From: Candidatus Daviesbacteria bacterium
GTDB lineage: Bacteria > Patescibacteriota > Microgenomatia > Daviesbacterales > UBA10151
Length of the DNA: 46,199 nucleotides
NCBI GenBank assembly: GCA_016183265.1
Contig: JACPEX010000027.1
Location: 1 to 46,199 of the forward strand
Reading direction: 5' to 3'
Part shown: one piece after another, positions 11,243 through 26,378 of the stretch
How positions within the stretch are numbered: the stretch's first letter is position 1
Layout: each line of letters begins with the position of its first letter
The notes under the pieces: generated by a model
What the model was told of the DNA's origin: nothing
Databases searched by the model: none
What the model saw: the letters and a program-made list of their open reading frames with translations, nothing else
Made by a program: the position numbers and the translations under genes

Positions 11243-11282
11243 TATATCTATTGTAACCACATTTAGGATTACTAGTCTAGAG

Positions 11283-11406: not shown

Positions 11407-13185
11407 TTTTACTTGGTATGTTCCTTTAACCAAAGAAAATGACCCTGAGGGGCCATAGGTAAACATGGTGCTTGACAAACCAGTCTCATAATTTATGGTG
11501 GAATTGTTTATTAACTTGATTTTCCAGGCAGTCAATTCTTTAAAAGAATTGCCTGTTCCGGGCTCGATAATACCGGTACTGGCATAGTAGACTCCGGTAT
11601 TGCCATTACTGTTTACTTTTATTGCCGACTCCCCATTAAGTCTGGAATCATAGCTGGTCAACACCATCAGCAAACTGCTGCCTACACCGGTCCCGTCTAA
11701 GTGGTTATTGCTATTTAACTCCACCTTGCCGTCTACCATAATTACCCCTGAGGTAACCCCAAAACCGGAATCAAGTGTCAAAATATTATTGCTGTTTAAT
11801 GTTAAATTGCCGGTAATCCAGACCGGGCTTTTGACAGTTACCCGGCAACCGCTGCCGAATGAAACATTGCCGGTAATCTTTTTGGCATCAAGCGTACCAA
11901 CGCAGCCGTTGACATCGCCTGTGACAATGCCGCCTGCCTGGGCAGCCTGCTTCCAGGCAGCTATATTGGCATCAGAGACGGGAAAAACTTTGGGCGGCGG
12001 ATCGGGAGATCCGGGATGAGCGGCTCCGGCAACAGTTGAGCTTATAATCTGCTGATAGTAAGCATTCCGGTTAATGATTAAATTCTCAATAGTATTGGCA
12101 TAGACATTACCTCCTACAGTCATTTTATTAGCGCCGGCCCTGATTGAAGTGGGGGCCCCTCCCAAATATGATTTAAAGCTCAAATCAGCCGGTGGGGTGG
12201 GCAAGTTCCACTGTGCGCTGCCAACCGACCAGTTAGGAGACCATTTGGGTAAACCCCTTGAATAACTCTGAGCCAAATCAGATTGCCAGGACCAAAAATT
12301 GTTATTATCCTCTGATGTATCAATCATCAACCAGTAAGTATAATCTTTTGAAACTGTAGGTGAGGAGTTAAAAGTCACATCAATCCAGCCATACTGGGAA
12401 GTGACTAAACTGCTAAATAAAGTGCCCTGTGTTAACACGGCAGTTTTATCAGGCTTGCCATCCTTATCCTGTAACACTCTAACTATGGCATCCGGCGGGT
12501 TGCCGCTCTTTTTTATCTTTATAGAAACTTTATTTAATACACCGCTGCTTACGGGCTGAAAGCTTTGGGCCACATCAAACCGATTCTCGCCATTAATATT
12601 TTTACCAAAATAAAAATCCTGGCAATTACTGTCTGCGCAATCTGTTTGCTGGTCAGCAGTTGCTTGAGGACCGCCTGCAACCCAGGCATCTCCACTAATG
12701 CTATTGCCGTTTCCGGCTGTAATATTACCGTTTGAGTAAATTGATCCTTCTACCGCATTACCATTACCCAACTCTAAACCGCCTTCTCCTACCTGTAATC
12801 CATAAACAAAAGACACGCCGGCTCCGTTTGATGCTGTAATGGAAATAGTCCTTTTAACCTTTGGGTTTGCCTGATTTGGTAAAAACCCGGTTGACTGAAT
12901 AATCCTGGTGCCGGGATTTTGTGAGGTAATAGTCACAGAATATGACCCGTCTCCCAAGACAGTCTCGGATTCTCCGTTATAACTGCCGCCTGTCTCATTT
13001 AAAAAAACTAAAGCTTTATCTATTCCTGCCTCTGCCAGAGCTGTTGCTTTTTCGGCATTTGCCGAATACAAAGCATTCTGGAAATAAATCTGCGCCCCGG
13101 AAATTACAAAAAGCACCGTAAAAAGCACTACCCCTAAAGCAATAAAAACCAAAACCAAAATCTGTCCCGATTCTTTTTTAATCAT
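11404..13185 (-). CDS. large pilus-associated protein: PilX-like N-terminal anchor plus Gly/Asn-rich beta-helix-like repeats (candidate tip/adhesin subunit)
   Basis: 593 aa. N-terminus GQILVLVFIALGVVLFTVLFV...ALAEAGIDKAL resembles the PilX N-terminal domain. Repeats include GNGNAVEGSIYSNGNITAGNGNSISGDAWV and ITGNVSFGSGCRVTVKSPVWITGNLTLNSNN. It is the last of the pseudopilin gene run. Confidence 0.5.
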   Translation of the reverse strand: MIKKESGQILVLVFIALGVVLFTVLFVISGAQIYFQNALYSANAEKATALAEAGIDKALVFLNETGGSYNGESETVLGDGSYSVTITSQNPGTRIIQSTGFLPNQANPKVKRTISITASNGAGVSFVYGLQVGEGGLELGNGNAVEGSIYSNGNITAGNGNSISGDAWVAGGPQATADQQTDCADSNCQDFYFGKNINGENRFDVAQSFQPVSSGVLNKVSIKIKKSGNPPDAIVRVLQDKDGKPDKTAVLTQGTLFSSLVTSQYGWIDVTFNSSPTVSKDYTYWLMIDTSEDNNNFWSWQSDLAQSYSRGLPKWSPNWSVGSAQWNLPTPPADLSFKSYLGGAPTSIRAGANKMTVGGNVYANTIENLIINRNAYYQQIISSTVAGAAHPGSPDPPPKVFPVSDANIAAWKQAAQAGGIVTGDVNGCVGTLDAKKITGNVSFGSGCRVTVKSPVWITGNLTLNSNNILTLDSGFGVTSGVIMVDGKVELNSNNHLDGTGVGSSLLMVLTSYDSRLNGESAIKVNSNGNTGVYYASTGIIEPGTGNSFKELTAWKIKLINNSTINYETGLSSTMFTYGPSGSFSLVKGTYQVK

Positions 13186-13753
13186 TTCTCAAACTTGCCT
13201 CCGAGGTGGCCGTGCTGGTTTCAGAATCAGCGCCAAACTGTTGTTTCAAAACCAAAGTAGTCCTGACTTTAGTGGCGCTTGGCGGAATTACTTCAACCGG
13301 AGGAGTAGCAGAATTAAAATATTGGAAATTTATATTATCAACTGAGGAGGAAAAAACCCGATCCTGGGCCTTCCTGGAACTTAAAGAATCCGGAAGAATT
13401 TTAAATTTTAAGAAGTGTTGATCTAGGGAGAAAACAAAGTAATCAAAGGTATTATCAATAATATTACCGGAAGTATCTATTGAAGATACTCTTAAAACAA
13501 GCTGGTTGGCGCTGCTGGTATCCGCTATGCCGGTTGCCTGCTTAATACTGCTCCTGATTTCTGATAAAGCATCATTCATATTCAGGCCTTCCTGGACTTT
13601 TGAGGATTGTTTAGAAAATAAACCAACGCTATTGACAATAATTACCAACAGTAAAACTCCGGCAACTGTGGCAATCCCCACGGCAATTAAAACCTCTATT
13701 AAAGTCAATCCATAATTTCTTACACTTTGCACTCTGCACTTTGCACTTTTCAC
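13178..13753 (-). CDS. prepilin-type minor pilin
   Basis: 191 aa. Leader MKSAKCRVQSVRNYG then LTLIEVLIAVGIATVAG (class III signal, Glu at +5). The GTG start overlaps the upstream stop (GTGA). Confidence 0.7.
   Translation of the reverse strand: MKSAKCRVQSVRNYGLTLIEVLIAVGIATVAGVLLLVIIVNSVGLFSKQSSKVQEGLNMNDALSEIRSSIKQATGIADTSSANQLVLRVSSIDTSGNIIDNTFDYFVFSLDQHFLKFKILPDSLSSRKAQDRVFSSSVDNINFQYFNSATPPVEVIPPSATKVRTTLVLKQQFGADSETSTATSEASLRND
13723..13753. repeat. heptamer tandem (cactttg cactctg cactttg cactttt) encoding a prepilin leader peptide
   Basis: Four imperfect 7-mers on the plus strand. On the minus strand they translate as KSAKCRVQS of the leader. Confidence 0.6.
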
Positions 13754-14145
13754 TGATTTATCCCTTCTTCTCCGATCAAAGTATTTAAATTTATATTTTG
13801 CGCTTTGTTGTTATCTACCCAGGAAACTGTAACCGTCACCTGTTTAATGGGCTCATCATTTGCACAAATAGCAGCCGGACAATCTTCCACAACTACTGTA
13901 CCAACGCCTTGAGGCAATAAGCTAAGGCGGGAATCAGAAATTGCACTATTGTCATTAACTAAATTAGAATAGTTTATATTTCTTTTATCCTCTATCTGCT
14001 TAACAGCTATTTCCCGTGCCAAACTGACATGCCGGGCTTTACTAATTAGCATCAAGGCATTTGGGATATTGGCCAGCAAGAAAACTATTGATCCTATTAT
14101 TACCACAACTAATAGGGATTCAATGAGCGAAACGCCTTTTTCCAT
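13750..14145 (-). CDS. prepilin-type minor pilin
   Basis: 131 aa. MEKG then VSLIESLLVVVIIGSIVF. Confidence 0.7.
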   Translation of the reverse strand: MEKGVSLIESLLVVVIIGSIVFLLANIPNALMLISKARHVSLAREIAVKQIEDKRNINYSNLVNDNSAISDSRLSLLPQGVGTVVVEDCPAAICANDEPIKQVTVTVSWVDNNKAQNINLNTLIGEEGINQ

Positions 14146-15048
14146 TTATTTGCTAATTTCTCCGGCAGAGAAAATGGCATAGTCAAAATAAGGGGGAACA
14201 ACTTTGAATATCTGAAACAATCTGACTTTTCTTTGTGTTTGCCCTGAAGTCCCTGTAGACTCTAAAATTCTTGCCTGCGGGGTAACAGAACAATCCCGAC
14301 CACACGAATTAACTGCCTGCACAGCAAAAGGTTGGGATGTAGTATTATACAGAAGCCTTGCCCGAAGCAACATCAATCTTGCGTTAGTATCTGTAAGCGA
14401 AAAGTTCAGAATCTTTTTGCATTGATAAGCATTTGCTCCCAGTGCATTTCCTGAACAAGCCGTAACTTTCTCGAATTTATTATCTGGTGATCTTGTAACA
14501 TTATGGTCAAGATACCATTTCTTACTTCTATACTTATTTGTATTAGGATTAACAGGGTCTCCTGAATCCTGCCCGTAATAGATTAATGTCAATTCCAATG
14601 CAGCCTGATCTGTAGCAGAATTACCCCAATAAACATCCAACGTCGACTGTTTGTACCCTTGTGCCGGAGGATTATTCGTATCATTTAAATTGGCAATGAG
14701 CCAAACATGGGCAACCTCTTCTTTAGTTAAAAGAGGATACTCTAATGGATCCTGGCGGGTATTATCAGTTTTAATGGTTGGTAACCAATCATTAGTGCCG
14801 GTAACTATTGCAGTTGCTTGATTATCAAAACTAACACTCCCCGTGCCCCCGCTTAATTTATTCTCTATCCCTGCTTCAGCAGCAGAAAAAGCACGGGAGG
14901 ATTGTTCAACTTTAGTAGAGGTGGAAATATCAGAAAGTGACCGCTGCACCACTGAAATCCCGATTGCCAAAGCCACAGTCATTACCAAAACTAATATTAG
15001 TACAATTTGGCCCGCCTGCCGGACGGGCAGGCCCTTCTCGTCCTTCAT
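14146..15048 (-). CDS. PilX-N-domain minor pilin-like protein
   Basis: 300 aa. GQIVLILVLVMTVALAIGISVVQRS...AFSAAEAGIE resembles the PilX N-terminal domain. Confidence 0.6.
   Translation of the reverse strand: MKDEKGLPVRQAGQIVLILVLVMTVALAIGISVVQRSLSDISTSTKVEQSSRAFSAAEAGIENKLSGGTGSVSFDNQATAIVTGTNDWLPTIKTDNTRQDPLEYPLLTKEEVAHVWLIANLNDTNNPPAQGYKQSTLDVYWGNSATDQAALELTLIYYGQDSGDPVNPNTNKYRSKKWYLDHNVTRSPDNKFEKVTACSGNALGANAYQCKKILNFSLTDTNARLMLLRARLLYNTTSQPFAVQAVNSCGRDCSVTPQARILESTGTSGQTQRKVRLFQIFKVVPPYFDYAIFSAGEISK
15009..15034. repeat. GC-rich hairpin inside a leader-peptide coding region
   Basis: ggcccGCCTGCCggacgGGCAGGCcc is a 7-bp GC stem in otherwise AT-rich DNA. It encodes GLPVRQAG of the 14146..15048 leader. 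Confidence 0.5.
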
Positions 15049-15052
15049 ATAA

Positions 15053-15724
15053 TTATCTTAACCCAATTGTGGTCTGAAATGTAACTGGATCAATTTGACT
15101 GGTAATTGCAGAAGAAGCACTAACCCCCGGTTTTAAATTAAACTTAATTGTAACTTGATCCTTGGCTCCCGCGGGTTTATCTCTGGTAAAGACTGGCGGG
15201 GGGTTTATACTGCAATCAGACGCAGGACATTCCACTGAAACCCCTGACTGTTCATTAGTATCAGTCAAGACAGTAGGATTAACCATTGGATCGGTACAAA
15301 CGCTGTTAATAAATGATTGGATATCTGTCGGAGCAGGGGTAGGTGAATTTTGGGCACAAGGAGTAGACGGATCCGGTTGTGGGTTATCTTGTTGAATTTG
15401 ACCATTTTGAGTTGGACTTGGAACTATAAATTTGTATCTGGTATAACAGCCGTTTTTTACGATCACCAAAGTATTGGAAGGATTTCCTAGTGTTGGACAT
15501 ATTACATTATCCGAATTTCTAACATTTTTATCCATAGTCTCCAAAACTGCCTGGCCGTTTTGTTTGATCACAGCCAATATTTGTGATTTATTGCTGCCTC
15601 TTAAAGTATTAGTAAAAATCACCACCAATATTGCCCCCACAATAGAAGTAATCGCCATTACTACCAGTATTTCAGCCAAGGTAAATGCACTAGAATTTTT
15701 ATTAAAGCCTGATTCTTGATTCAT
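15053..15724 (-). CDS. prepilin-type minor pilin
   Basis: 223 aa. Leader MNQESGFNKNSSA then FTLAEILVVMAITSIVGAIL. The first codons (aatcaagaatca) are a partial copy of the ttcttga/gaatcaa heptamer family. Confidence 0.7.
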   Translation of the reverse strand: MNQESGFNKNSSAFTLAEILVVMAITSIVGAILVVIFTNTLRGSNKSQILAVIKQNGQAVLETMDKNVRNSDNVICPTLGNPSNTLVIVKNGCYTRYKFIVPSPTQNGQIQQDNPQPDPSTPCAQNSPTPAPTDIQSFINSVCTDPMVNPTVLTDTNEQSGVSVECPASDCSINPPPVFTRDKPAGAKDQVTIKFNLKPGVSASSAITSQIDPVTFQTTIGLR

Positions 15725-15729
15725 AATTC

Positions 15730-16353
15730 TTACAGCTTTCTTAGTATTGTTGTCAATTTTGATTCATGGTCCCCGGCAAAGTCTGTCCAGGTCACTATGA
15801 CTGTAACTTTTTTTTGGGTAGTATAGCTAGTAGAATCATCAGATAAAATAACTACCCGTTTAAAATTAGGCGGTATTAATTGTGAACCATTTACAGGAAA
15901 AGACGATCCATTTATAAAATAATTCAAGACCCCCGTATCTGCGATATTAAAATAACAATTGGGGTTCAGTTGATTACTACAAGCAGAATTTATTTGATAA
16001 GTCCAGATAGATCCGGTACCAACACAACTAGTATCGCTGCTATTACCATTCCATGAATTTACATTTGTTAATCCAGTAATACATTCATTCCTATCCCTGC
16101 CAGCCCTGACCCTTTCTATTCCTTCCTGGGCCAACTTTGTAGCCTGGGCGCTGTTTTTGGCAAAGCTGGCATTCCTTAAAGAGAAAATAGTGGCAAAAGT
16201 CAAAGCTGTCACCACCAAAATCCCGACCGCCGCAGCTACAATAACTTCTATTAAAGACTGCCCCTGTTCAGAATTAAGAATTAAGCGGTAAGAATTAAGC
16301 TTAAAAAGCTTCATTCTTGATTCTTGATTCTTAATTCTCATATTATTGCGCAT
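15730..16353 (-). CDS. prepilin-type minor pilin with an unusually long, repeat-encoded leader
   Basis: The mature part starts at QSLIEVIVAAAVGILVV after ...NSEQG. The ORF track starts at 16374. ATG at 16353 follows a strong SD (AAGGAGGGAGG) and is my preferred start. Alternative starts are 16341 and 16314. Confidence 0.65.
   Translation of the reverse strand: MRNNMRIKNQESRMKLFKLNSYRLILNSEQGQSLIEVIVAAAVGILVVTALTFATIFSLRNASFAKNSAQATKLAQEGIERVRAGRDRNECITGLTNVNSWNGNSSDTSCVGTGSIWTYQINSACSNQLNPNCYFNIADTGVLNYFINGSSFPVNGSQLIPPNFKRVVILSDDSTSYTTQKKVTVIVTWTDFAGDHESKLTTILRKL
16271..16337. repeat. 31-bp imperfect heptamer-periodic hairpin (gaattaa / ttcttga units) within the leader-peptide coding region
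   Basis: gaattaagaattaagcggtaagaattaagctt aaaa agcttcattcttgattcttgattcttaattc. The arms are complementary with about one mismatch per 7-mer. Confidence 0.7.
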
Positions 16354-16870
16354 AAATCCTCCCTCCTTGTTCAACTTTTAAAGATTTTGTATTTGATGTT
16401 TTGTTGTTTATAACAGTAATTGTGACTATGCCTGTACCGCAAGATGCAATCATAGCCCCGGAAAGAGGAGCAAAAGTAACTGTATTGGTAGCACCAAAAG
16501 TACAACTATTAATTCCAGATGTCATAGTGTCAATCGAAATATTTCCAGAAAAGGGCAACTTTTTTAAGGAGCCGGATATAAAGTTCAAACCACCACCAGC
16601 AGGATACATACACATCAAATTTAACTCTGTGCCACTGGTAAATTCCACAAACCAAGTAGCGCCGCCCTGGCCCTGGCATTTTACTCCGGAAGTAGCATTT
16701 GTTTGGGCTTGCCTGAGCAGGCTTTGGATATCCAAAACAGCATTTTTTAATTTCTGGTCTTCCCCAAAAGTACCATAATTTGACAGGACATAAGCCCCTA
16801 TTAAACCTATAATTGCTATCACTACCAATAACTCAACCAATGTAAAGGCATTAAGGACAGTTTTACCCAT
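16343..16870 (-). CDS. prepilin-type pseudopilin
   Basis: MGKTVLNA then FTLVELLVVIAIIGLIG. The ORF track starts at GTG 16885, overlapping the upstream stop. ATG 16870 is preceded by TACAAT + 6 nt. Confidence 0.7.
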   Translation of the reverse strand: MGKTVLNAFTLVELLVVIAIIGLIGAYVLSNYGTFGEDQKLKNAVLDIQSLLRQAQTNATSGVKCQGQGGATWFVEFTSGTELNLMCMYPAGGGLNFISGSLKKLPFSGNISIDTMTSGINSCTFGATNTVTFAPLSGAMIASCGTGIVTITVINNKTSNTKSLKVEQGGRIYAQ

Positions 16871-16884
16871 ATTTCCATTGTACA

Positions 16885-17355
16885 CTACGGGGGGGTAACT
16901 TTAAAATTATAAGTATTATTTCTACAGGTGTAGGAAGGAGCGCCTGAGGGGGAATTATCCAATCTGGCATAAAGTTCTGCTTTAGTAGGCACATAACAAT
17001 AATCCGGCTGCGGTGCAGGTAGAGGATCGTGAGGAATTTGATTCAGATAAGTCTTGTTACCGGCAGGATTCTTTAAGGGACAATCTACCCGTTCAGAATT
17101 GGTTACCCAGTTGTTGAAGTATCCATTTGTACAAGTACGGATACCAGCCTGAGCAGTGATGCCGGGATAAAAACCCTGGTCAGCATAATATTGTTCTAAA
17201 GCTGATTGGATTGAGCGGAGGTCTGACTGCCTTTTACTGTCCCGACCCTGTTTTAGAACAGAACTATAAACCATTAATCCAATAGCCGAAAGGATGGCAA
17301 TAATAGCCACTGTTACCAGAAGTTCAACTAAAGTAAAACCACGGGACTTGAGCAT
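16885..17355 (-). CDS. pilA: type IV pilin (PilA-like; candidate major pilin)
   Basis: MLKSRG then FTLVELLVTVAIIAILSAIGLMVYSSVLKQGRDSKRQSDLRSIQSALEQYY. The ORF track starts at 17364 (MKIM...). ATG 17355 gives a classic 6-aa leader and sits 7 nt after a near-consensus promoter. Confidence 0.8.
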   Translation of the reverse strand: MLKSRGFTLVELLVTVAIIAILSAIGLMVYSSVLKQGRDSKRQSDLRSIQSALEQYYADQGFYPGITAQAGIRTCTNGYFNNWVTNSERVDCPLKNPAGNKTYLNQIPHDPLPAPQPDYCYVPTKAELYARLDNSPSGAPSYTCRNNTYNFKVTPP

Positions 17356-17362
17356 TATTTTC

Positions 17363-17391
17363 ATAATAGATTAAGCTCATTAAGACGTCAA
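17363..17391 (-). promoter_or_regulatory. near-consensus sigma70 promoter TTGACG-17-TATTAT, 7 nt upstream of the pilin ATG 17355 (leaderless configuration)
   Basis: Minus-strand reading: TTGACG (17391-17386), 17-nt spacer, TATTAT (17368-17363), 7 nt, ATG (17355). Confidence 0.5.
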
Positions 17392-17407
17392 TATTAACCT
17401 TTCTCAA

Positions 17408-17860
17408 TTATTGCTGGTTTGACCTGCAGTAGAAACCTCCGGCTTCCAAATTGGCGCAAACCGTAAACGACGAAAACCACCCGTCCAAACCGCCACCAGG
17501 ACCTGGGCTATAATCACCGATATTGCTGTCACCGGACTGGCAGGGACCATTTGAAGCCCGGCTGCAGTATTTACATGATGTAGGATTAGTCCACATACAG
17601 GATGCATTAGGATCACCCGGATATGAAGGATCCCTGGGATAATCACCGGAGGAAAAGAAAATATTGTTTAAAGCTCTGTAGCCTGCTGCCGTATAATGGG
17701 CCTCTAGCGCATTAGCTATGGCGTCAATATCAACCCTTCTTCTGGCATCCCTGGCATTTTTCTGCACACCGCTATATAGCGTTATCCCAACCATGGACAA
17801 AACAGCAATAATGGAAATAACTATTAGTAATTCAACAAGCGTAAAACCCTTTTTGGACAT
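17408..17860 (-). CDS. type IV pilin, paralog 1 of 3
   Basis: 150 aa. MSKKG then FTLVELLIVISIIAVLSMVGITLYSGVQKNARDARRR. C-terminal C...FYCRSNQQ disulfide-loop motif is shared with 19505..19936 and 21416..21838. Confidence 0.85.
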   Translation of the reverse strand: MSKKGFTLVELLIVISIIAVLSMVGITLYSGVQKNARDARRRVDIDAIANALEAHYTAAGYRALNNIFFSSGDYPRDPSYPGDPNASCMWTNPTSCKYCSRASNGPCQSGDSNIGDYSPGPGGGLDGWFSSFTVCANLEAGGFYCRSNQQ

Positions 17861-17867
17861 TACCTCT

Positions 17868-17897
17868 ATTGTGCCATTTTACTAAGCAAATATTCAA
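17868..17897 (-). promoter_or_regulatory. candidate promoter TTGAAT-18-CACAAT, 7 nt upstream of the pilin paralog-1 ATG
   Basis: Minus-strand reading: TTGAAT (17897-17892), 18 nt, CACAAT (17873-17868), 7 nt, ATG 17860. Confidence 0.35.
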
Positions 17898-17918
17898 CCA
17901 TTTAATTATAGATTTGTT

Positions 17919-19499
17919 ATGATACTTATGATGAAAATCATACAATTTTTAATCTTATTAATAATCTTACTCAGCTATACACTCTTGATTGCCAGACCTG
18001 TTATACTAACTACCGGAGATTTGGGAAGACATTTAAAAAATGGGGAAATTATTGTTAAAGAATTTTTTGTACCAAATACCAACTTATTTACTTATACTAA
18101 CGGAAAATTCCCTTATATAAATCACAATTGGGGCTTTGGTGTAATATCCTATTTTCTGCAGAAGAGTATTGGATTAACAGGTTTACATATTATATTTATA
18201 ATATTACCTTTATTAACGTTCTTAGTCTTTTTTCATATCTCATGGAGCTATTCCAATTTCTATTTAGCATCATGGATATCAATATTAATTTTGCCGCTTT
18301 TGGCAAGCCGACCACATATACGACCTGAGATTTTCAGCAATCTTTTCAGCGGGATTTTTCTTTGGATACTAATAAATTACCGGTTCAAAAAAATACCGAT
18401 AGGTTATTTGATTATTCTACCAGCAATTCAATTATTTTGGGTAAATCTTCATATTTATTTTTATTTTGGCTTAATAATTGTTACAGTTTTTACGTTTGAA
18501 GCTTTTATTAGTCACATCAGCGGAAAGGATGAAATCAATTACTTCAGAAACTTGTGCTTTATACTGCTCATTTCTTTTTTTGTCTCTTTTGTTAATCCCT
18601 CTGGTGTGAACGGATTCCTTTACCCGTTAAAAATTTTTAACAATTATGGTTTTTCTATCGATGAGAATACATCAGCGCTTACTCGTAATAATTTAACCAA
18701 TTTAATCTCTGATACATATTTTATATTAGCTTTAATAATTTTTCTGATCAGTACGGGACTAATTTTTCTAAAAAAGACTATGCATCAAAAAAACATTATC
18801 TTTCCGCTTCTGGTAATTGGTTTTATGACCGCTATCATGTCCTTAAACTCTATTAGAAACTTTGCTATTTTTGGTTTTCTAATGATAGTGATCCTGTCAA
18901 TAAATATTAAAATTTTGTTATCTCTTGAAAAAACAAAAATAAAAAAATGGGTATTAATTTCTCAGATTATAATAACCGTAATTCTAATTTCTTTTTATCT
19001 ACTTAGCATAGCAAATAAAACAAAAATTAGCATTACACCTAAGCCTACCGACAAAGAAGGAGCAGAATTCTTTCTAAGAAATAATATTCAAGGTCCGATT
19101 TTCAATGATTTCGATATCGGTGGATATTTAATTTATTATCTTTATCCAAAACATAAATTATTTATTGACAACCGACCAGAAGCCTTTCCTGCAGCTTTTT
19201 TTAAAGAAACCTACATTCCTATGTTAGAAAATGATCAAAAATGGCAATCGGAACTTAAAAAAAATAACTTTAATACAATCTTCTTCTATCGGCTTAACCG
19301 CACAGAGCCAGCAATCACATTCCTTATTAATCGGATTAATGATCCCGAATGGGAAGTTGTTTTTGTTAATGAATATACAATTATATTTCTGAAGAAGAAT
19401 AATCTAAATAAGAAAATTATTGACAAATATCATGTACAAAAAGATGTTACATTGATTTATGGTTCTTCAATCAAAAACAATGAGGGAACTTTTAACTAA
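17919..19499 (+). CDS. polytopic membrane protein (>=10 TM) with a C-terminal soluble domain; GT-C-like architecture, family not recognised
   Basis: 526 aa, very AT-rich and Ile/Leu/Phe-rich. An early loop reads TTGDLGRHLKNGE. The last ~150 aa are hydrophilic. It is divergent from pilin paralog 1. Confidence 0.5.
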   Translation: MILMMKIIQFLILLIILLSYTLLIARPVILTTGDLGRHLKNGEIIVKEFFVPNTNLFTYTNGKFPYINHNWGFGVISYFLQKSIGLTGLHIIFIILPLLTFLVFFHISWSYSNFYLASWISILILPLLASRPHIRPEIFSNLFSGIFLWILINYRFKKIPIGYLIILPAIQLFWVNLHIYFYFGLIIVTVFTFEAFISHISGKDEINYFRNLCFILLISFFVSFVNPSGVNGFLYPLKIFNNYGFSIDENTSALTRNNLTNLISDTYFILALIIFLISTGLIFLKKTMHQKNIIFPLLVIGFMTAIMSLNSIRNFAIFGFLMIVILSINIKILLSLEKTKIKKWVLISQIIITVILISFYLLSIANKTKISITPKPTDKEGAEFFLRNNIQGPIFNDFDIGGYLIYYLYPKHKLFIDNRPEAFPAAFFKETYIPMLENDQKWQSELKKNNFNTIFFYRLNRTEPAITFLINRINDPEWEVVFVNEYTIIFLKKNNLNKKIIDKYHVQKDVTLIYGSSIKNNEGTFN

Positions 19500-19504
19500 A
19501 TAGA

Positions 19505-19936
19505 TTACTGCTGACTTTTCTGACAATAAAAACCTCCATTAGCAGCTGCTGTACCAGTATTATCGCTAGAATTACCACCATTACCTGACTCGAGTTTCGC
19601 ACAAACCGTATAAGTAGCCAATGGCAAAGCTGAAATTTTATAATCGTATCCACCGCTATTCGTAGGATCCGTAAGCATAACACCTCCACTAAACATTCCT
19701 CCAGTGACAGTTTGATATTCAGTTCTGTTATTTGAAGAAAAATCCGCTTCTAAAGCATTAGATATAGCATTAATATCAGCTTTCCTTCTTGCATCCCTTG
19801 CACTTTTTTGCACACCACTAAATATAGTTATGCCAATTACAGATAAAACGGCAATGATAGCAACAACTACCAAAAGCTCAACAAGGGTAAACCCACGTTT
19901 ATCCTGAGCGTAATCGAAGGAGGCAGTTTTTTTCAT
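19505..19936 (-). CDS. type IV pilin, paralog 2 of 3
   Basis: 143 aa. Leader MKKTASFDYAQDKRG then FTLVELLVVVAIIAVLSVIGITIFSGVQKSARDARRK. C-terminal C...FYCQKSQQ. Confidence 0.85.
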   Translation of the reverse strand: MKKTASFDYAQDKRGFTLVELLVVVAIIAVLSVIGITIFSGVQKSARDARRKADINAISNALEADFSSNNRTEYQTVTGGMFSGGVMLTDPTNSGGYDYKISALPLATYTVCAKLESGNGGNSSDNTGTAAANGGFYCQKSQQ

Positions 19937-19969
19937 ATTTTATGCTATTTCAGATGTTATACTTTAAAT

Positions 19970-21406
19970 ATGACTTATCTAAAAAAAATTGTCAAGAGTA
20001 CAAAGATTCAAATCCTTTTTCTGATATTAATAACAATTTTAATTTATGCCAATACTTTGCAAAACGGCTTTGCCTGGGATGACTATGATTTTCTTTACAT
20101 ATGGCCTTCGATTAAAGATAACGGAGGTTTGTCAGTCACCTTTAGCCTGCCATCACTTATGGCAGGTGACTTACCATCCAATCATCTAGGAGTCTACCGG
20201 CCTTTAAGAAGCGTTTTTTATGTCTTAAGCTTTAAAATATATGGGACCAATCCATTTGGTTATCACCTGCAGGCAATTTTTATTCATTTATCTGCTGTCT
20301 TGCTGATTTATTTCATAACCCGACTCATAATTAACAAGCCTTTAGTACCATTTATGACCGCACTTTTATTTGCAACGCACCCGATACACACCGAAAGCGT
20401 ATCCTTTATCACTGCCAGCTTTGACACTGTAGGGGTGGTATTTCTCCTGCTTTCGTTCTATTTGTACTTAAAAAAAACAAAAGCCCATTTGTTTGCTTCC
20501 TATATATATGCTGCTTTTGCCTTTTTCACCTATGAGATGACCCTGGTGCTGCCTTTATTAATCATTTTATATGACTTTTGTTTTAAAAAACGGCTTAGAA
20601 TAAAAGTTTATCTGCCGTACTTTATATTGCTTATGGCTTACGGCATAATAAGATTTCTGTTACTGAAGGTAGGTAATAGGGCTGATTATTTAGGTCCAAA
20701 CTTTTTAAACTCTGCTCTACTTTCCAGAATAGAGACACCGGAATTACTTTTGGGATACTTCTCCTGGCTGGTTTTGCCAATAAACTTAACCATCACCCAT
20801 AATGTGCCGGAAAAACTTTTATCTGGTTTACTTGCCATTAATAATTTTTCTAACCAGGGAATTTTTATTGCTAATTTACTGATGAAAATTTCTATTATAG
20901 TACCAATAATTACTATTGCTTCTGTTGTTTATCTTATTCTGAAAATCTTTTCCAAAAGAAAAGAAATTGCTTTCAGTCTTTGCTGGATTTTGATATCTCT
21001 AATTACTGTCTCCAATATCCTGCCTCAAGGCGCTCCGTGGACTGAAAGGTATTTATATTTACCATCATATGGTTTTGTTCTCTTAATAGCTTATTCGTAT
21101 AATATTTTTTCTAAAAAAATTTCTTTATATCTTCTAATAGTTCTTTTTTTTGCTAATATTATTTTCTACTCAACAGTTACCTTTTTAAGAAATAAGGACT
21201 GGCAAAATGATAAGACATTGTTTTCCAGTGTCTTAAAAATCAATCCCAATAACGATAGCGCATACAACGGCATAGGTTTATTTTACTTAAGAGCGCATCA
21301 ACCTAATTTAGCTGTAGCAGCCCTTAAAAAAGCACTTAAAATTAATCCAAATAATATTGATTCCAAAAATAGACTTGATATTTTAAGCAAACAGGGGATT
21401 AACTGA
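19970..21406 (+). CDS. TMTC-like GT-C membrane glycosyltransferase with C-terminal TPR repeats
   Basis: 478 aa. The N-terminal YANTLQNGFAWDDYDFLY matches the first-loop DD motif of TMTC/PMT-type protein O-mannosyltransferases as I recall it. Multiple TMs. C-terminal TPRs (AYNGIGLFYLRAHQPNLAVAALKKALKINPNN). Confidence 0.6.
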   Translation: MTYLKKIVKSTKIQILFLILITILIYANTLQNGFAWDDYDFLYIWPSIKDNGGLSVTFSLPSLMAGDLPSNHLGVYRPLRSVFYVLSFKIYGTNPFGYHLQAIFIHLSAVLLIYFITRLIINKPLVPFMTALLFATHPIHTESVSFITASFDTVGVVFLLLSFYLYLKKTKAHLFASYIYAAFAFFTYEMTLVLPLLIILYDFCFKKRLRIKVYLPYFILLMAYGIIRFLLLKVGNRADYLGPNFLNSALLSRIETPELLLGYFSWLVLPINLTITHNVPEKLLSGLLAINNFSNQGIFIANLLMKISIIVPIITIASVVYLILKIFSKRKEIAFSLCWILISLITVSNILPQGAPWTERYLYLPSYGFVLLIAYSYNIFSKKISLYLLIVLFFANIIFYSTVTFLRNKDWQNDKTLFSSVLKINPNNDSAYNGIGLFYLRAHQPNLAVAALKKALKINPNNIDSKNRLDILSKQGIN

Positions 21407-21415
21407 AGTTTTTGG

Positions 21416-21838
21416 TTATTGGGAATTTACCCTGCAATAATAATCTCCGCCTGAAATAGAAGAAAATGATGTGCTGCTGGCTGAATTGCCATTCTTGTTT
21501 TCCAGTAAAGCACAGAATACATAGCCTGTTGTAGTAGGTGTATTTGTATTATAGGCTGCTCCTCCCGGACCCGGATTGGCCGGTAAAGCACTCCCTGCAA
21601 ACCAGGATCCTGCTACAGATGTCGGATAACCGGTTCCGGTAATGTAATTTGCCTCCATAGCTGCAGCCATAGCATCCATATCAGCTTTTCTTTTGGCATC
21701 CCTGGCATTTTTTTGCACACTGGTAAAACCAACTACCCCGATCATAGAAAGAATAGCCAAAATAGAAATAGCAACCAGAAGTTCAACTAAGGTGAAGCCT
21801 TTTGGATTATTAACAGTTCTGGGCAGAAATTTTCTCAT
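21416..21838 (-). CDS. type IV pilin, paralog 3 of 3
   Basis: 140 aa. Leader MRKFLPRTVNNPKG then FTLVELLVAISILAILSMIGVVGFTSVQKNARDAKRK. C-terminal C...YYCRVNSQ. Confidence 0.85.
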   Translation of the reverse strand: MRKFLPRTVNNPKGFTLVELLVAISILAILSMIGVVGFTSVQKNARDAKRKADMDAMAAAMEANYITGTGYPTSVAGSWFAGSALPANPGPGGAAYNTNTPTTTGYVFCALLENKNGNSASSTSFSSISGGDYYCRVNSQ

Positions 21839-21858
21839 TTAATTTTTAGCTATAATTC

Positions 21859-21888
21859 ATTATCTGCATAATCAAAACAGTCTGTCAA
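21859..21888 (-). promoter_or_regulatory. candidate promoter TTGACA-18-GATAAT for pilin paralog 3
   Basis: Minus-strand reading: TTGACA (21888-21883), 18 nt, GATAAT (21864-21859), then a 20-nt leader to ATG 21838. Confidence 0.4.
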
Positions 21889-21909
21889 GTACTCAAATTT
21901 AGATTATTC

Positions 21910-21940
21910 TTACACCCCAAGGGTGTAATCGGAGGTTTAC
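21910..21940. repeat. REP1 hairpin copy 1 (ACACCC-caa-GGGTGT core)
   Basis: ttacaccccaagggtgtaatcggaggtttac. Confidence 0.8.
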
Positions 21941-21970
21941 TTTTTAATTAAAATATGGTCTACTGAATTT

Positions 21971-22687
21971 ATGCCTTCAAGAATACACCCACTAGTCAAT
22001 GGAGAGTATTACCATATCTTCAACAGGGGCGTCGACAAGATGGATATTTTTAAAAACTCATACAACTTTCAAAGATTTTTGAAAACTATGCTTTATTATC
22101 AAATACTTGGGCCAAAACCCAGATTTTCTCTGTTTACGCCTACTAATGATTTATTGGACAAAAGCAAAAAGATTATTGAAATTGTTTGTTACTGTCTAAT
22201 GCCAAACCATTTCCACTTCCTTGTTAAACAATTAATTGATGGCGGCATAACTGAATTTATCAGCAAATTAAGCAACAGTTATACTAAATATTTCAATATT
22301 AAGCATAAAAGAGTAGGACCCCTTCTGCAGGGTGAGTTCAAATCAGTGTTAATGGAAAGCAATGAGCAATTATTACATCTTAGCCGATACATCCACTTAA
22401 ATCCCTTAGTTTCGGATTTGGTAAAAGACTTAAGCGATTATCGCTGGTCATCTTATCCAGAATATATCCGGCTAAACACCCAAAAAATCTGTGCCAAAGA
22501 GATTATCTTAGATCAGTTCAAATCACCAAAGGATTACCAGAAATTTATTTTAAATCATGCAGATTATGGCAGGGAGCTGGAAATTATTAAACACCAACTA
22601 ATAGAAGAGTATGACCTCCGATTACACCCCAAGGGTGTAATCGGAGGTTTACAGATCAAACCCCCAACTTTAAATACCAATCCATAA
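21971..22687 (+). CDS. REP-associated tyrosine transposase (RAYT; HUH/Y1, IS200-like fold)
   Basis: 238 aa. YHIFNRGV, HUH motif MPNHFHFLV, catalytic-Tyr motif LSRYIHLNPL. The 3' end (LRLHPKGVIGGLQ) is read through REP1 copy 2 and overlaps the convergent pilD end. Confidence 0.8.
   Translation: MPSRIHPLVNGEYYHIFNRGVDKMDIFKNSYNFQRFLKTMLYYQILGPKPRFSLFTPTNDLLDKSKKIIEIVCYCLMPNHFHFLVKQLIDGGITEFISKLSNSYTKYFNIKHKRVGPLLQGEFKSVLMESNEQLLHLSRYIHLNPLVSDLVKDLSDYRWSSYPEYIRLNTQKICAKEIILDQFKSPKDYQKFILNHADYGRELEIIKHQLIEEYDLRLHPKGVIGGLQIKPPTLNTNP
22615..22652. repeat. REP1 hairpin copy 2 (full 15-bp perfect stem)
   Basis: CCTCCGATTACACCC caa GGGTGTAATCGGAGG followed by tttac. Confidence 0.85.
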
Positions 22688-23519
22688 TTTGGTTGCCCCA
22701 AAAGAGCATAATCAAAGACCCTAAAACCAAAAATGGGCCAAAGGGGATGGTTTGACCAAAATGTTTCTTGCCGGCAATTATCAAAATTATGGAAAATATG
22801 GCCCCGGTTAGAAAGGATAAAACAACCGCGAATAGAGCTTGCGGAAAACCTAGCATCAACCCGATAAATGCCCCCAATTTTACATCACCTCCGCCCATGC
22901 CTTTTCCCCGGGTAATAATTATTAAACTTAGGAAAAAACCCCCGATCAACAAACCCATTAGTATTCCTAAATAAAGAGGTTCAGCAGCTGCCAGCGCATG
23001 CCTTTGAAAATAATCACTATATGGCGGCAAAAGTTTCCTGCCAATAGGGGACTGGGATAAATAAAAATAAAGATAACCTATTTTATATACAGTAATCGCT
23101 ACCAGACTAATTAGGCTAATAATAATTGCCGGAATTACAATCCTATCCGGAATAAACATCTTTTTAAAATCTGTAATAAATAAAACAACAAGAATAACTA
23201 TAAAAAATATTTTTAATATAAGATCAGGAATAGAAATCAACGAAAATTGGGTTTGAGTAAAAAGATAAGCAATTAATATCCCTAAGATAATTTCAGTAAT
23301 TGGATATTCCAGAGGGATTTTCTTTTTGCAGTATCTGCATTTACCATTAAGAAAAATATATGAAAATATAGGAAAAAGGTCATACCATCTTAATCCTGCT
23401 TTGCAGGACGGACAATACGACCTTCCCCAAAAAGACTTCATACCTAAACTCCGGTCAGCCAGCGCCTTAACTAAACTTCCTAATACCACGCCTACAATAA
23501 ATCCTGCTGACCCCCACAT
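22656..23519 (-). CDS. pilD: prepilin peptidase / N-methyltransferase PilD (peptidase A24)
   Basis: CPSC...CRYC zinc motif, GGGDVKLGAFIG active-site Asp motif, 6-8 TM. The ORF track starts at TTG 23555, overlapping the upstream pilin. ATG 23519 (MWGSAGF) is my preferred start. Confidence 0.85.
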   Translation of the reverse strand: MWGSAGFIVGVVLGSLVKALADRSLGMKSFWGRSYCPSCKAGLRWYDLFPIFSYIFLNGKCRYCKKKIPLEYPITEIILGILIAYLFTQTQFSLISIPDLILKIFFIVILVVLFITDFKKMFIPDRIVIPAIIISLISLVAITVYKIGYLYFYLSQSPIGRKLLPPYSDYFQRHALAAAEPLYLGILMGLLIGGFFLSLIIITRGKGMGGGDVKLGAFIGLMLGFPQALFAVVLSFLTGAIFSIILIIAGKKHFGQTIPFGPFLVLGSLIMLFWGNQIMDWYLKLGV

Positions 23520-23523
23520 TATA

Positions 23524-24066
23524 TTAATAAGTACAACTCCCTCCTGATGTCGCAATCAAACTTAAGCTGGAACCAAGCTCGTAAAGAGCCGGGTCATTAC
23601 CACCATCTCCTCCTGCCTTACCAGATTGCTGTTGCGATTCCAAGGTAGTATTAATTTCCCAAGCATTACCATCAGAACAATAAGTATAGTGCTTTACTGC
23701 ATCATTGATTGGATCAACCGGCAAAGTCGGAACTGATGCAGTCTTTTGGGCAGACAAATTAACCTTTACCCAACCTGTCCCATCAGAACTACGGGTCCCA
23801 CTGTTGCTTGAACCATTACAGGGAGTCGCGCCCCCATTACAAAGAATTTCAGCTGCAGAACCTGTTGCCTCCTGCACAGCCAGACTAATTGCATTTTGCA
23901 AACTAGTGAGATCTGCAAGCCTTGCTACATCACGGCCTCTGCTGTTAATTTCCAACGGATTAACAAAATACCAACTAATAACTGCCAATATGGCAATAAT
24001 TGCAATAACTACCAAAAGCTCCACTAAAGTAAATCCTTTAGCTAGAGCCTGAGCAGATTTTTTCAA
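23524..24066 (-). CDS. type IV pilin-like protein
   Basis: 180 aa. Leader MKKSAQALAKG then FTLVELLVVIAIIAILAV. TTG start preceded by SD GAGGGGGTGA. Confidence 0.8.
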   Translation of the reverse strand: MKKSAQALAKGFTLVELLVVIAIIAILAVISWYFVNPLEINSRGRDVARLADLTSLQNAISLAVQEATGSAAEILCNGGATPCNGSSNSGTRSSDGTGWVKVNLSAQKTASVPTLPVDPINDAVKHYTYCSDGNAWEINTTLESQQQSGKAGGDGGNDPALYELGSSLSLIATSGGSCTY

Positions 24067-24123
24067 ACTATCTCACCCCCTCTATTCAATAATAGACATA
24101 AGTCATACTGCTTAGTCAAGAGA

Positions 24124-25323
24124 CTAAAACGATGTTGTTAACTTGTATATCGGTAAAATAATCGAGATCACCAAAAATGCCACTCCAACACCTAAAATTA
24201 TCAAAACAATCGGCTCAATAGCTACTGTCAAATTCTTAATTAAATGATCTGATTCTGATTCAAAATAACTTGCCAATTTAAAAAATATCTCGTCAACTTT
24301 GCCTGTTTCTTCGCCGACCCTGACCATCTGGCTGATGATTTTTGGAAAATTGTTAACCGTTAAAAGCGATGAGAGCGGTAAACCCTTTTCAACTCCTTTA
24401 TAAGCTTCTTTTAGGGCATTCTTAAAAACCGGATTATCTGTTAAATCAGTTACTATGCCGATTGAGTCTAAAATAGGAATACCGGCGGAAGCTAACAGAC
24501 CGAAAGTCCGATTGAAATTGGTTAAAGTGACACTCGTGATAATTTTTCCCACAATAGGAATTTTTAAAAGCAGCTTTCCAAAAAAAAGATTGCCCTGAGG
24601 TGTTTGATTCCATCGATTTACAGCTACAGAAATTCCCACCCCAAAAATTATACTCATCCACCAAAAACGGGTAAATAGGTTTGATGTCCCGATCAAAATT
24701 TTAGTAGGCAAGGGCAATTCTATAGTAGATTGGGAATACAAATTTGTCAGTTTGGGAATAACAAAAATCATCATAATAAAAATAACCACTACCATCATAG
24801 TTAAAACCACACCCGGGTAAATCATTGCTCCTTTAACCTTAGCTTTAAATTCCCTGTCTTTTTCCAAACCGTCTGCCATCTGAAGCAGCACAAGATCCAA
24901 TTTACCGGAAGCTTCACCGCTTTTAACTAAATTGACATAAAGACGCGGAAAAATATCCGGGTACTTACTCAAGGCTTGCGCTAAAGTTAAACCTCCCTTG
25001 ACATCCTGAGAAATATCTGCCAAAGCCCTTTTTAAAGTTTTATTTGTCTGTTGTTCTTCCAGAATATCTATTGCTTCTGATAAAACTAAACCACTGGAAA
25101 CCATGGTAGCTAGTTGTCTGGTAACAATAACTAGTTCCGTAAAGTTAATCCTGTTAAAAAAATGCTCTAAGAATTTATTGGCATGTCCTGACTTAGAATT
25201 TAAGGAAATCAGAATTAAACCTTTTTTACGGATGATGGCTACAGCCGAATGGGCATCGGGAGATTGAATATTACCGGTATAATCATTACCTTTGATGTCT
25301 TTAGCCTTGTATAGAAATTCCAT
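24124..25323 (-). CDS. pilC: type IV pilus platform protein PilC (GspF family)
   Basis: 399 aa, with two GspF-type repeats and 3 TM segments. Confidence 0.85.
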   Translation of the reverse strand: MEFLYKAKDIKGNDYTGNIQSPDAHSAVAIIRKKGLILISLNSKSGHANKFLEHFFNRINFTELVIVTRQLATMVSSGLVLSEAIDILEEQQTNKTLKRALADISQDVKGGLTLAQALSKYPDIFPRLYVNLVKSGEASGKLDLVLLQMADGLEKDREFKAKVKGAMIYPGVVLTMMVVVIFIMMIFVIPKLTNLYSQSTIELPLPTKILIGTSNLFTRFWWMSIIFGVGISVAVNRWNQTPQGNLFFGKLLLKIPIVGKIITSVTLTNFNRTFGLLASAGIPILDSIGIVTDLTDNPVFKNALKEAYKGVEKGLPLSSLLTVNNFPKIISQMVRVGEETGKVDEIFFKLASYFESESDHLIKNLTVAIEPIVLIILGVGVAFLVISIILPIYKLTTSF

Positions 25324-25324
25324 T

Positions 25325-26377
25325 TTACTTCAGCAGCTTTGCCAACAATTCCGGCCGTAAGACATATTTCAAAGCCATCTCCTCAGAAATTTTTCCGGCG
25401 TGCACTAAATTGGCAAGAGCTCTTTCCATAGGTTGCATACCAAGCTCAGCCGAAGTTTCAATTGTGTTGTCGATCAAATAGGATTTAGCTTCCCTGATAA
25501 TGTTTCTAACAGCAGGCGTAGCAAACAAAACTTCAGCTGCTAAAGTTCTACCTGGCTGGATTGTCGGAATTAGACGAAGCGACAAAATTGCTTCTAAGGT
25601 AGCTGACAACTGCAGTCTGATTTGAGGTTGTTGGACTTCGGGAAAAACATCAATAATCCGGTCTATAGATTGAGCCGCTGAATTTGTGTGAAGGGTGGCA
25701 AACACCAAATGCCCTGTTTCGGCAATTGTCATAGCTGATGAAATAGTCTCCAAATCCCGCATCTCGCCAACTAAAACCACATCCGGATCCTCCCGCAGCG
25801 AGGCGCGCAGAGCATTTCCCCAGGAGCTGGTATCAGAATACATCTCCCTTTGTTCAATTAACGATTTACCGGCAGGATAAACATATTCTATAGGATCTTC
25901 AATAGTGATTATATGTTCTGCCCGGCTTAAGTTTATTTTATTTATAAATGAAGCCAAAGCAGTTGACTTACCGTGACCGGTCGGGCCGGTCACGAGAACA
26001 AAACCTTGCTTTAACTCTGTCAGCTTACTAACAACAGGCGGAAACCCTAGTTCTTCAAGAGGCGGAATTCTATAAGGAATTAGCCTTAGAGCCAGCGCTG
26101 GTTGGCCTTTTTGTTTATAGGCATTCACCCTAAACCTGGCTTTTGATTCAAATTCAAAAGAGAAATCAACTTCAATCGACTGTTTATAGTTATTTATTTG
26201 CATCTCCGAAAGAAGAACTTTGATTATTTCTTCCATTTGTCCTGGGGAAACTATAGATTCGCCTGGCACAGGAATCAAATCACCATGGATCCTTAAAGTT
26301 GGCAGGAAACCAACAGAAAGGTGAAGGTCAGATGCATTTTGCCGAATTGTCAGATCTAGAAGCTGTTGAATATTCAT
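25325..26377 (-). CDS. pilT: twitching-motility retraction ATPase PilT
   Basis: 350 aa. Walker A GPTGHGKST, Walker B/Asp box, TLHTNSAAQSIDRIIDVF, and a PAVRNIIREAK (AIRNLIRE-like) motif. Confidence 0.85.
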   Translation of the reverse strand: MNIQQLLDLTIRQNASDLHLSVGFLPTLRIHGDLIPVPGESIVSPGQMEEIIKVLLSEMQINNYKQSIEVDFSFEFESKARFRVNAYKQKGQPALALRLIPYRIPPLEELGFPPVVSKLTELKQGFVLVTGPTGHGKSTALASFINKINLSRAEHIITIEDPIEYVYPAGKSLIEQREMYSDTSSWGNALRASLREDPDVVLVGEMRDLETISSAMTIAETGHLVFATLHTNSAAQSIDRIIDVFPEVQQPQIRLQLSATLEAILSLRLIPTIQPGRTLAAEVLFATPAVRNIIREAKSYLIDNTIETSAELGMQPMERALANLVHAGKISEEMALKYVLRPELLAKLLK

Positions 26378-26378
26378 G

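Follow-up and report, generated by a model that had tools for sequence, protein, structure and literature searches.

Type IV pili are thought to be the main tool with which ultrasmall Patescibacteria, the candidate phyla radiation (CPR), find and hold their hosts. Among related known systems, the Gtr three-component systems combine a GtrA flippase, a GtrB glycosyltransferase of family GT2 and a GT-C transferase, and act in O-antigen glucosylation and, as CsbB/GtcA/YfhO, on teichoic acids; TfpW acts on pilin and is found in Pseudomonas aeruginosa/paraeruginosa strains that belong to group IV (Pa5196 and PA7). TfpW is a GT-C enzyme of 646 amino acids (aa) with 11 transmembrane (TM) helices; a DDX motif in its periplasmic loop 1 is essential, and its C terminus carries tetratricopeptide repeats (TPRs); tfpW adjoins pilA, homologues in other species with type IV pili keep that position, and the enzyme is necessary and sufficient for arabinosylation of pilin with D-arabinofuranose (D-Araf) (bioRxiv 10.1101/2020.04.19.049825). 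Whether and how the pili of CPR bacteria are glycosylated is explicitly an open question (PMC11623550). Here we analyse a stretch of 46,199 nucleotides (the window, to which all unlabelled coordinates refer) from contig JACPEX010000027.1 of a Candidatus Daviesbacteria bacterium (assembly GCA_016183265.1), in which two membrane proteins of the GT-C fold, GTC1 and GTC2, are encoded among the pilin genes of a type IV pilus cluster. We consider it fairly probable that the locus holds two accessory pilin-glycosylation cassettes, each a GT-C gene with its cognate pilin, that were inserted between a pilin gene of the pil159 type and the prepilin peptidase gene pilD.

The locus had been singled out in an earlier note, made from the letters of the window, as three paralogous pilins alternating with two polytopic membrane proteins of 526 and 478 aa. 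The listing of open reading frames (ORFs) confirms all five genes at their coordinates:

17408..17860, minus strand: pil1, a 150-aa prepilin, divergent from GTC1; its terminal disulfide loop (CANLEAGGFYC) is short, with 9 residues.
17919..19499, plus strand: GTC1, a 526-aa protein with a GT-C fold (AlphaFold2 and Foldseek) and a C-terminal alpha/beta domain.
19505..19936, minus strand: pil2, a 143-aa prepilin, convergent with GTC1 across a 5-bp gap; candidate acceptor of GTC1.
19970..21406, plus strand: GTC2, a 478-aa, PMT_2-like protein with a GT-C fold, a loop-1 W36-D37-D38 motif and a short TPR region at the C terminus.
21416..21838, minus strand: pil3, a 140-aa prepilin, convergent with GTC2 across a 9-bp gap; candidate acceptor of GTC2.

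The three prepilins have the leader, the G-F-T-L-x-E motif and the hydrophobic helix of type IV pilins, with PilD encoded in the same cluster; they match N_methyl at 30–35 bits (Pfam cut-off 21.2) and also pass the cut-off of TIGR02532. Their pairwise identity is 41–46%. In broad agreement with the earlier note, they share the N-terminal GFTLVELL helix, a (G/S)VQK(N/S)ARDA(R/K)R segment and a C-terminal C...(F/Y)YC(R/Q)xxQ loop, and the similarity that it saw at the DNA level extends over the N-terminal part of the genes. The Ser/Thr/Gly/Asn-rich stretches that it pointed out are real and fall within the last disulfide loop of pil2 (CAKLESGNGGNSSDNTGTAAANGGFYC) and of pil3 (CALLENKNGNSASSTSFSSISGGDYYC), which has 25 residues in both. 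Its remark that the membrane genes are AT-rich also stands: the GC content of GTC1 (0.288) is the second lowest among 434 ORFs of at least 200 aa (genome mean 0.393, standard deviation 0.033) and that of GTC2 is 0.333, against 0.367 and 0.358 for their genomic paralogues.

Close orthologues retain this organization. All four GTC1 orthologues examined (53–58% identity; L111, L112, L113 and L211) and all seven GTC2 orthologues examined (42–53% identity; L114, L115, L116-118, G014, G007 and G035) are embedded in pilus clusters and convergent with a pilin gene. The 11 orthologues are syntenic: each lies antisense to the pilus genes, between a pil159-type pilin and the pilin adjacent to pilD. The partners in these inserts are further genes of glycosylation: in the loci of GTC2 orthologues, the second gene of the insert encodes a PMT_2-type GT-C of about 500 aa, and the insert of G014 also holds a GT2 gene, an S-adenosylmethionine-dependent methyltransferase gene and a gene for a 689-aa polytopic protein. 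Each GT-C gene of the window has a divergent pilin gene on one side and a convergent one on the other. The divergent transcription emphasized in the earlier note therefore exists, but it does not define the unit. Comparison with the relatives identifies the convergent pilin as the conserved partner, and the gene upstream of GTC2 in those genomes encodes another GT-C rather than a pilin; we accordingly rejected the divergent pair as the unit. The conserved unit is at least one GT-C gene convergent with a long-loop pilin gene, and here two such units stand in tandem beside a short-loop pilin.

The pilins that face GT-C genes have a distinctive terminal loop. It spans 25–30 residues and contains G-N-S-S opposite the GTC1 orthologues (4/4 examined), and spans 24–28 residues with G-N-[AS] opposite the GTC2 orthologues (7/7 examined). 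In 12 of 12 GT-C-facing pilins it has 24–30 residues and takes the form C-x-x-[LM]-E-x-x-x-G-N-[SA]-...-C. GTC1-facing pilins carry G-N-S-S (5/5); GTC2-facing pilins carry G-N-A-T (four), G-N-A-S, G-N-S-A or G-N-S-N. Among 19 related clusters without GT-C genes, just 3 have a long G-N-[AS] loop, and when loops of at least 20 residues are counted as long, the comparison is 5 of 19 such clusters against 12 of 12 (Fisher p = 9e-5, uncorrected for phylogeny). Short-loop pilins of the pil1 type adjoin PilD in most of the 19 clusters and are the common type in related genomes. In G051, a genome of the same genus, the syntenic cluster holds one short-loop pilin and is free of GT-C genes, and the cluster is also without GT-C genes in 20 further genomes of the family. 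Both the GT-C-less cluster of G051 and the outlying base composition of GTC1 fit an accessory cassette. Each of the two enzymes has a paralogue elsewhere in the host genome; these paralogues, at C37 (34% identity) and C13 (32%), are not near pilins, which makes the copies in the pilus cluster specialized extras.

A GT-C fold and a conserved acidic motif in loop 1, the very features whose absence the earlier note had named as refuting, are present in both membrane proteins. The AlphaFold2 model of GTC1, built on 31 homologues, has a predicted local distance difference test (pLDDT) score of 85 and a predicted template-modelling (pTM) score of 0.87. Searched with Foldseek against the PDB, it matches STT3 best (E = 2.4e-7; template-modelling score over the query (TMq) 0.65), followed by DPY19 (4.5e-7), AglB (3e-6) and then AftA, PglB and ArnT; all 23 PDB matches at E ≤ 1e-3 are GT-C enzymes, with probability 1.0. 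At the sequence level, GTC1 has no match in Pfam, NCBIfam or the PDB (single sequence, and also a profile for the PDB). Asp34 in loop 1 (T-A-D-L-G-R-H, after TM1) is invariant across the 31 homologues, and NHxWG (NHHWG), RxxxRPE, WxNxH (WVNLH), E249-N250 and RN (RNF) are invariant or nearly so, as are F-N-x-x-D-x-G-G-Y and DNRPE in the external alpha/beta C-terminal domain. For GTC1 as for GTC2, the fold predicts that loop 1 lies on the extracytoplasmic side of the membrane.

GTC1 belongs to a very large GT-C family for which neither Pfam nor NCBIfam has a model: a profile search returned 25,479 clusters at 50% identity, 17,372 of them at E ≤ 1e-10. In relatives at 40–43% identity (L207, L208/L209), the gene is flanked by a GtrA gene on one side and, on the other, by a gene for a GtrB-like GT2 protein of 226–230 aa. 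Among the immediate neighbours at 80 loci of the family from many phyla, GT2 is the commonest (16/125), followed by adh_short (8/125), PMT_2 (6/125) and GtrA (2/125). GtrA and GT2 neighbours are the signature of a GT-C that depends on polyprenyl-phosphate sugars. Loci in Binatia and Desulfobacterota (L011, L014, L023, L031, L048-L050 and L071) regularly have a short-chain dehydrogenase gene of about 258 aa after the GTC1-family gene, which hints at a conserved sugar-modifying partner.

The structural matches raise the possibility that GTC1 is an oligosaccharyltransferase (OST) resembling STT3 or AglB, which would N-glycosylate the invariant Asn of G-N-S-S in the pilin that it faces, with GTC2 acting on Ser/Thr instead. 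STT3, DPY19 and AglB rank ahead of ArnT and Pmt, the C-terminal domain weakly resembles the globular domain of AglB, and a conserved F-N-[ND]-[FY]-D-x-G-G-Y follows the last TM helix by some 30 residues, a distance comparable to that at which OSTs carry WWDYG; moreover, the 5/5 occurrence of G-N-S-S supplies an N-x-S/T sequon. However, we rejected GTC1 as STT3 itself: a whole-genome search with the STT3 hidden Markov model (HMM; PF02516) gave two weak matches, both on C35, and none at GTC1, in a search that recovered archaeal controls. WWDYG is absent from GTC1 and no DK/MI motif is recognizable. Furthermore, the relatives of GTC1 occur in monosaccharide-type modules with GtrA and GT2 rather than in the company of Wzx-type or en-bloc glycan genes, a loop rich in Asn, Ser and Thr would be expected to contain N-x-S/T by chance, and neither pil3 nor the facing pilin of L114 has a sequon at the G-N position. 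We therefore think N-linkage by GTC1, which would be a variant of the cassette interpretation, quite unlikely.

GTC2 is of a different kind. Its AlphaFold2 model has a pLDDT of 91 and a pTM of 0.92, and Foldseek matches it exclusively to GT-C enzymes: PglB (1.1e-3), ArnT (1.6e-3), STT3, AglB and Pmt1/Pmt4, with E values from 1e-3 to 4e-2, probabilities of about 1.0 and a modest TMq of about 0.44. Its match to PMT_2 (PF13231; E = 1.2e-4, 22.8 bits) is below the gathering cut-off of 26.1, and 8 of 31 homologues match PMT_2 at E ≤ 0.01; on these scores, GTC2 is no more than a distant relative. The C-terminal region matches TPR_1, TPR_17 and TPR_11 above cut-off and is the only part with sequence matches in the PDB. 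Phe34, Asp37 and Asp38 (the W-D-D of loop 1) are at least 90% conserved in the 31 homologues, and Y76-R77-P78, H99, H140 and D152 are further conserved residues. We rejected GTC2 as a TMTC enzyme: it has no match to the TMTC signature DUF1736 (PF08409) at E ≤ 0.1, and the 25 families that its 31 homologues match most often do not include PF08409. The coding sequence stops 9 bp from the pil3 stop, as if placement of the pilin cassette had cut the TPR tail short. Elsewhere in the same GTDB family, GTC2-like GT-C proteins with TPRs have expanded, with 21 matches over many contigs in G030 and tandem arrays of 4–7 in G028 (C5:153810-169026) and G022 (C6:32004-40496); none of the copies examined adjoins a pilin.

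The TPR region also invites the reading that GTC1 and GTC2 are non-catalytic accessory factors or chaperones of the pilus that would stabilize or sort individual pilins, like TfpY/TfpZ or the TPR proteins PilF/PilW, and retain nothing of a GT-C but its scaffold. Weak matches of the region to PilW, Tgl and PilF-type models, its reduced length and the sub-threshold PMT_2 score are in keeping with this; however, the TPR matches are generic, Patescibacteria have no secretin, so that a pilotin would have nothing to serve, and the GT2 and methyltransferase neighbours in G014 point to sugar chemistry. Because the loop-1 acidic residues and polar membrane motifs are as invariant in the pilin-linked copies as across the families, we regard a non-catalytic role as highly improbable.

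On the glycosylation-cassette interpretation, each cassette would comprise a GT-C gene that runs opposite to the pilus strand, head-on to a pilin gene whose product has a Ser/Thr/Gly/Asn-rich loop of about 25 residues with an invariant G-N-[S/A]. A cytoplasmic GT2 enzyme would load a sugar onto polyprenyl phosphate, and the lipid-linked sugar would be flipped across the membrane to its outer side. There, GTC1 (through Asp34 of loop 1) and GTC2 (through Asp37/Asp38) would attach it, most probably in O-linkage, to the exposed loop of the pilin, which is still anchored in the membrane; the placement of these residues at the outer face is proposed by analogy with solved GT-C enzymes, and the TPR domain of GTC2 may be a pilin-binding module. 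Transfer would precede assembly by PilB and PilC, while the globular heads of the prepilins are exposed on the outer face, and the outcome would be pili with a glycan-covered surface. Such a coat might serve surface variation, protection from phages or proteases, or host binding.

The genome has the means to supply a donor. It contains eight GT2 matches, one of them to a gene in which GT2 is fused to GtrA (C35:11578-12732), and GT2 genes together with such a fusion imply that it can make lipid-linked sugars. A glycosylation island at C35:11578-24875 has three GT2 genes, one of which is the gene fused to a GtrA/DPMS transmembrane domain, and two polytopic ORFs (555 and 340 aa) with weak, sub-threshold matches to the STT3 HMM; the lipid-linked sugar donors probably come from this island. 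A gene of the DprE1 type (ALO/PF04030) had no match in the genome, which is 84% complete. The sugar is therefore probably not D-Araf, a point that bears on the identity of the sugar and not on the mode of action.

The cassettes sit in the following surroundings:

9016..28115, minus strand: type IV pilus cluster of 19 kb, encoding PilO/N-like proteins, PilM, a 593-aa protein, about 8 minor pilins or pseudopilins, the cassettes, PilD, a pilin, PilC, PilT and PilB.
16885..17364, minus strand: pil159, a 159-aa pilin (N_methyl, E = 2.5e-8); left border of the insertion slot, a position conserved in related clusters.
21971..22687, plus strand: REP-associated tyrosine transposase (RAYT, Y1 type; Y1_Tnp, E = 5.5e-6; NF047646, E = 7e-13), between pil3 and pilD.
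22656..23555, minus strand: PilD, prepilin peptidase (A24_N_bact, E = 1.9e-23, and Peptidase_A24); right border of the insertion slot.

The host genome is of the Patescibacteria type, 676 kb in length and from groundwater. Its pilus cluster matches the Pfam models PilM_2, T2SSF, T2SSE (twice), Peptidase_A24 and N_methyl, and has no secretin gene between 9016 and 28115; the prepilin motif scan finds 9 prepilins in the cluster and just 1 elsewhere in the genome. Of the 61 genomes in the GTDB family, 57 encode PilD. Orthologues of pil159 flank the GT-C genes in L152-L154 and adjoin the PilD-proximal pilin in clusters without GT-C genes. A scan for promoters and terminators gave 29 sites, not above expectation (24 ± 6 in shuffled sequence); in the same scan, pil2 and pil3 each have a plausible promoter of their own, that of pil3 being a promoter-like site at 21888-21859(-). 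No RNA sequencing run among those searched contains the window sequence.

A single contig from Logan, assembled from an independent groundwater run, spans 16000-21939 with zero differences. Because this contig is identical, the cassette arrangement is not an assembly artefact and we ruled out a chimera. Logan contigs from the same groundwater study match the window and then diverge at 17650, 17959, 18438, 18948, 21838 and 22044; several of these points are at cassette borders (21838, for example, is the exact start of pil3), which suggests co-existing strains that differ in pilin or GT-C content. One low-depth contig, X1, omits 84 bp (28 codons, in frame) at 23439-23524 near the 5′ end of pilD, where pilD overlaps the end of a 180-aa pilin gene.

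The RAYT gene at 21971..22687, between pil3 and pilD, marks the slot as an insertion hot-spot. A second RAYT copy lies at 42600-43274 of the window, and RAYT genes 40–45% identical to the window copy occur in or beside the pilin region of relatives' clusters (L151:5896-6618, L194:4120-4797, L201:1636-2310 and L211:2259-2933). In G007, a HepT/MNT toxin–antitoxin pair (a Polbeta nucleotidyltransferase and a ribonuclease; L154:15704-16534) lies between the long-loop pilin and pilD.

Several findings weigh against two pilin-glycosylation cassettes. By a prepilin motif scan that recovers all 9 pilins of the window, no pilin lies within 2 kb of GTC1 homologues at 80 loci from many phyla, none lies beside GTC1 homologues at 29 loci in genomes of the same GTDB family, and none lies beside 26 GTC2 homologues of ≤39% identity, one dissimilar case apart. 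Three related genomes (G058, G050 and G038) have long-loop pilins although their clusters are devoid of GT-C genes and they have no close orthologue either, which breaks the strict rule that a long loop is found only beside a GT-C, and the statistic that associates loops with GT-C genes ignores phylogeny. The slot holds different cargo in different genomes (a RAYT here, HepT/MNT in G007, and IVP with a DDE transposase in L116); as an insertion hot-spot, it could have brought GT-C and pilin genes together partly by coincidence. The window itself has neither a GT2 gene nor a flippase gene, and the TPR region of GTC2 is shortened to about 2 repeats (residues ~405-475) from the 5–8 repeats of its 560–670-aa orthologues. 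The likeness of GTC2 to TfpW is one of described architecture, and pilin glycosylation in Patescibacteria has so far been a prediction only, of sites in a 2024 study of Saccharibacteria (PMC11623550).

Pilin linkage is thus a trait of a narrow subclade and not of either protein family, and the counts above rule out that both families are pilin-linked in general. The linkage to pilins in other genomes that the earlier note had proposed as a check is present in the close orthologues (11/11) and missing from the families at large (0/80, 0/29 and 0/26). In an alternative explanation, the GT-C proteins modify something other than pilin (a cell-wall polymer, a lipid, an S-layer or another surface protein) and the slot is merely permissive to insertions. 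The overwhelming lack of linkage in both families speaks for it, as do the generic GtrA/GT2/GT-C modules, beside PMT_2 and TPR proteins, in which relatives of GTC1 are found, the RAYT, toxin–antitoxin, IVP and transposase genes that the slot hosts in various genomes, the long-loop pilins without GT-C neighbours and the foreign-looking base composition of GTC1. However, at least 11 distinct loci, with proteins that have diverged to 42–58% identity, repeat the convergent layout of a GT-C gene and a long-loop pilin, and this layout involves three types of GT-C (GTC1, GTC2 and the PMT_2 type); in the window, each GT-C gene is accompanied by its own pilin paralogue, and housekeeping paralogues are already present elsewhere in the genome. 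We judge a non-pilin target to be unlikely, although it is the more credible of the alternatives considered here. The suggestion that these are glycosyltransferases dedicated to pilin keeps the fold, the motif and the linkage of close orthologues in its favour; the linkage is narrower than that suggestion implied, and the glycosylation that the enzymes would perform is predicted.

As pilin-glycosylation cassettes, the genes would offer concrete candidate pairs of enzyme and acceptor, GTC1 with pil2 and GTC2 with pil3, together with natural controls: the short-loop pilin encoded in this cluster, and a genome of the same genus that lacks the enzymes. They tie a very large GT-C family without a database model to a plausible class of substrate, and at least three different GT-C types have been recruited to this one slot in the pilus cluster. 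Confirmation would extend pilin glycosylation of the TfpW kind from a few Proteobacteria to the CPR, and would suggest cassette-wise variation of the pilus glycan, with a bearing on phage receptors and host specificity. A bolder version, which we regard as a long shot, is that GTC1 represents a pilus-dedicated branch of its unannotated family, an STT3-independent N-glycosyltransferase that acts on the Asn of G-N-S-S, and that Patescibacteria swap matched cassettes of pilin and transferase and thereby change the glycan coat of the pilus used for host attachment.

The comparison with known systems places the two proteins differently. GTC1 shares with STT3, AglB and PglB (GT66) and with DPY19, its best Foldseek matches (TMq 0.60–0.66), a core of many TM helices, a globular external domain at the C terminus and an acidic loop-1 residue; it differs from them in having no detectable sequence similarity, no STT3 HMM match and no WWDYG, and it is shorter (526 against 640–870 aa). 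As in Gtr systems, relatives of GTC1 adjoin GtrA and GT2 genes and its own genome has a GT2-GtrA fusion; unlike them, the GTC1 of the window has no GtrA or GT2 neighbours and sits among pilins, and its presumed acceptor would be a protein rather than a polysaccharide. GTC2 shares a GT-C core, a loop-1 DD/DE and C-terminal TPRs with TMTC1-4 (GT105), from which the missing DUF1736, its bacterial origin and its place in a pilus cluster set it apart, and it is linked to the PMT and ArnT types (GT39/GT83) by a PMT_2 match that scores below the Pfam cut-off. TfpO/PilO and PglL achieve the outcome proposed here, glycosylation of pilin on the outer face by a membrane enzyme encoded next to it; they belong, however, to the Wzy_C family, for which neither GTC1 nor GTC2 has a match, and use a preassembled glycan linked to undecaprenyl pyrophosphate.

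TfpW, to which the earlier note had also appealed, proves the right analogy for GTC2, whose architecture fits the published description: a GT-C with about 11 TM helices, a DD(x) in loop 1 and a C-terminal TPR region, encoded next to a pilin (9 bp from pil3) in a position kept in seven orthologues. The differences are that GTC2 has 478 aa and about 2 TPRs where TfpW has 646 aa, that it is antisense to and convergent with its pilin gene whereas tfpW lies downstream in the same direction, that its host has no match for a DprE1-type gene and would probably use a sugar other than D-Araf, that the candidate acceptor is a C-terminal disulfide loop and that the host is a monoderm-like Patescibacterium. 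Because TfpW is itself a GT-C with TPRs, such an enzyme in the role of a pilin glycosyltransferase is not new, contrary to what had been proposed for this locus. The less expected element is GTC1, a second and unrelated GT-C paired with a pilin of its own, which comes from a different, unannotated GT-C family and has a fold like that of STT3 and DPY19 with an alpha/beta rather than a TPR external domain.

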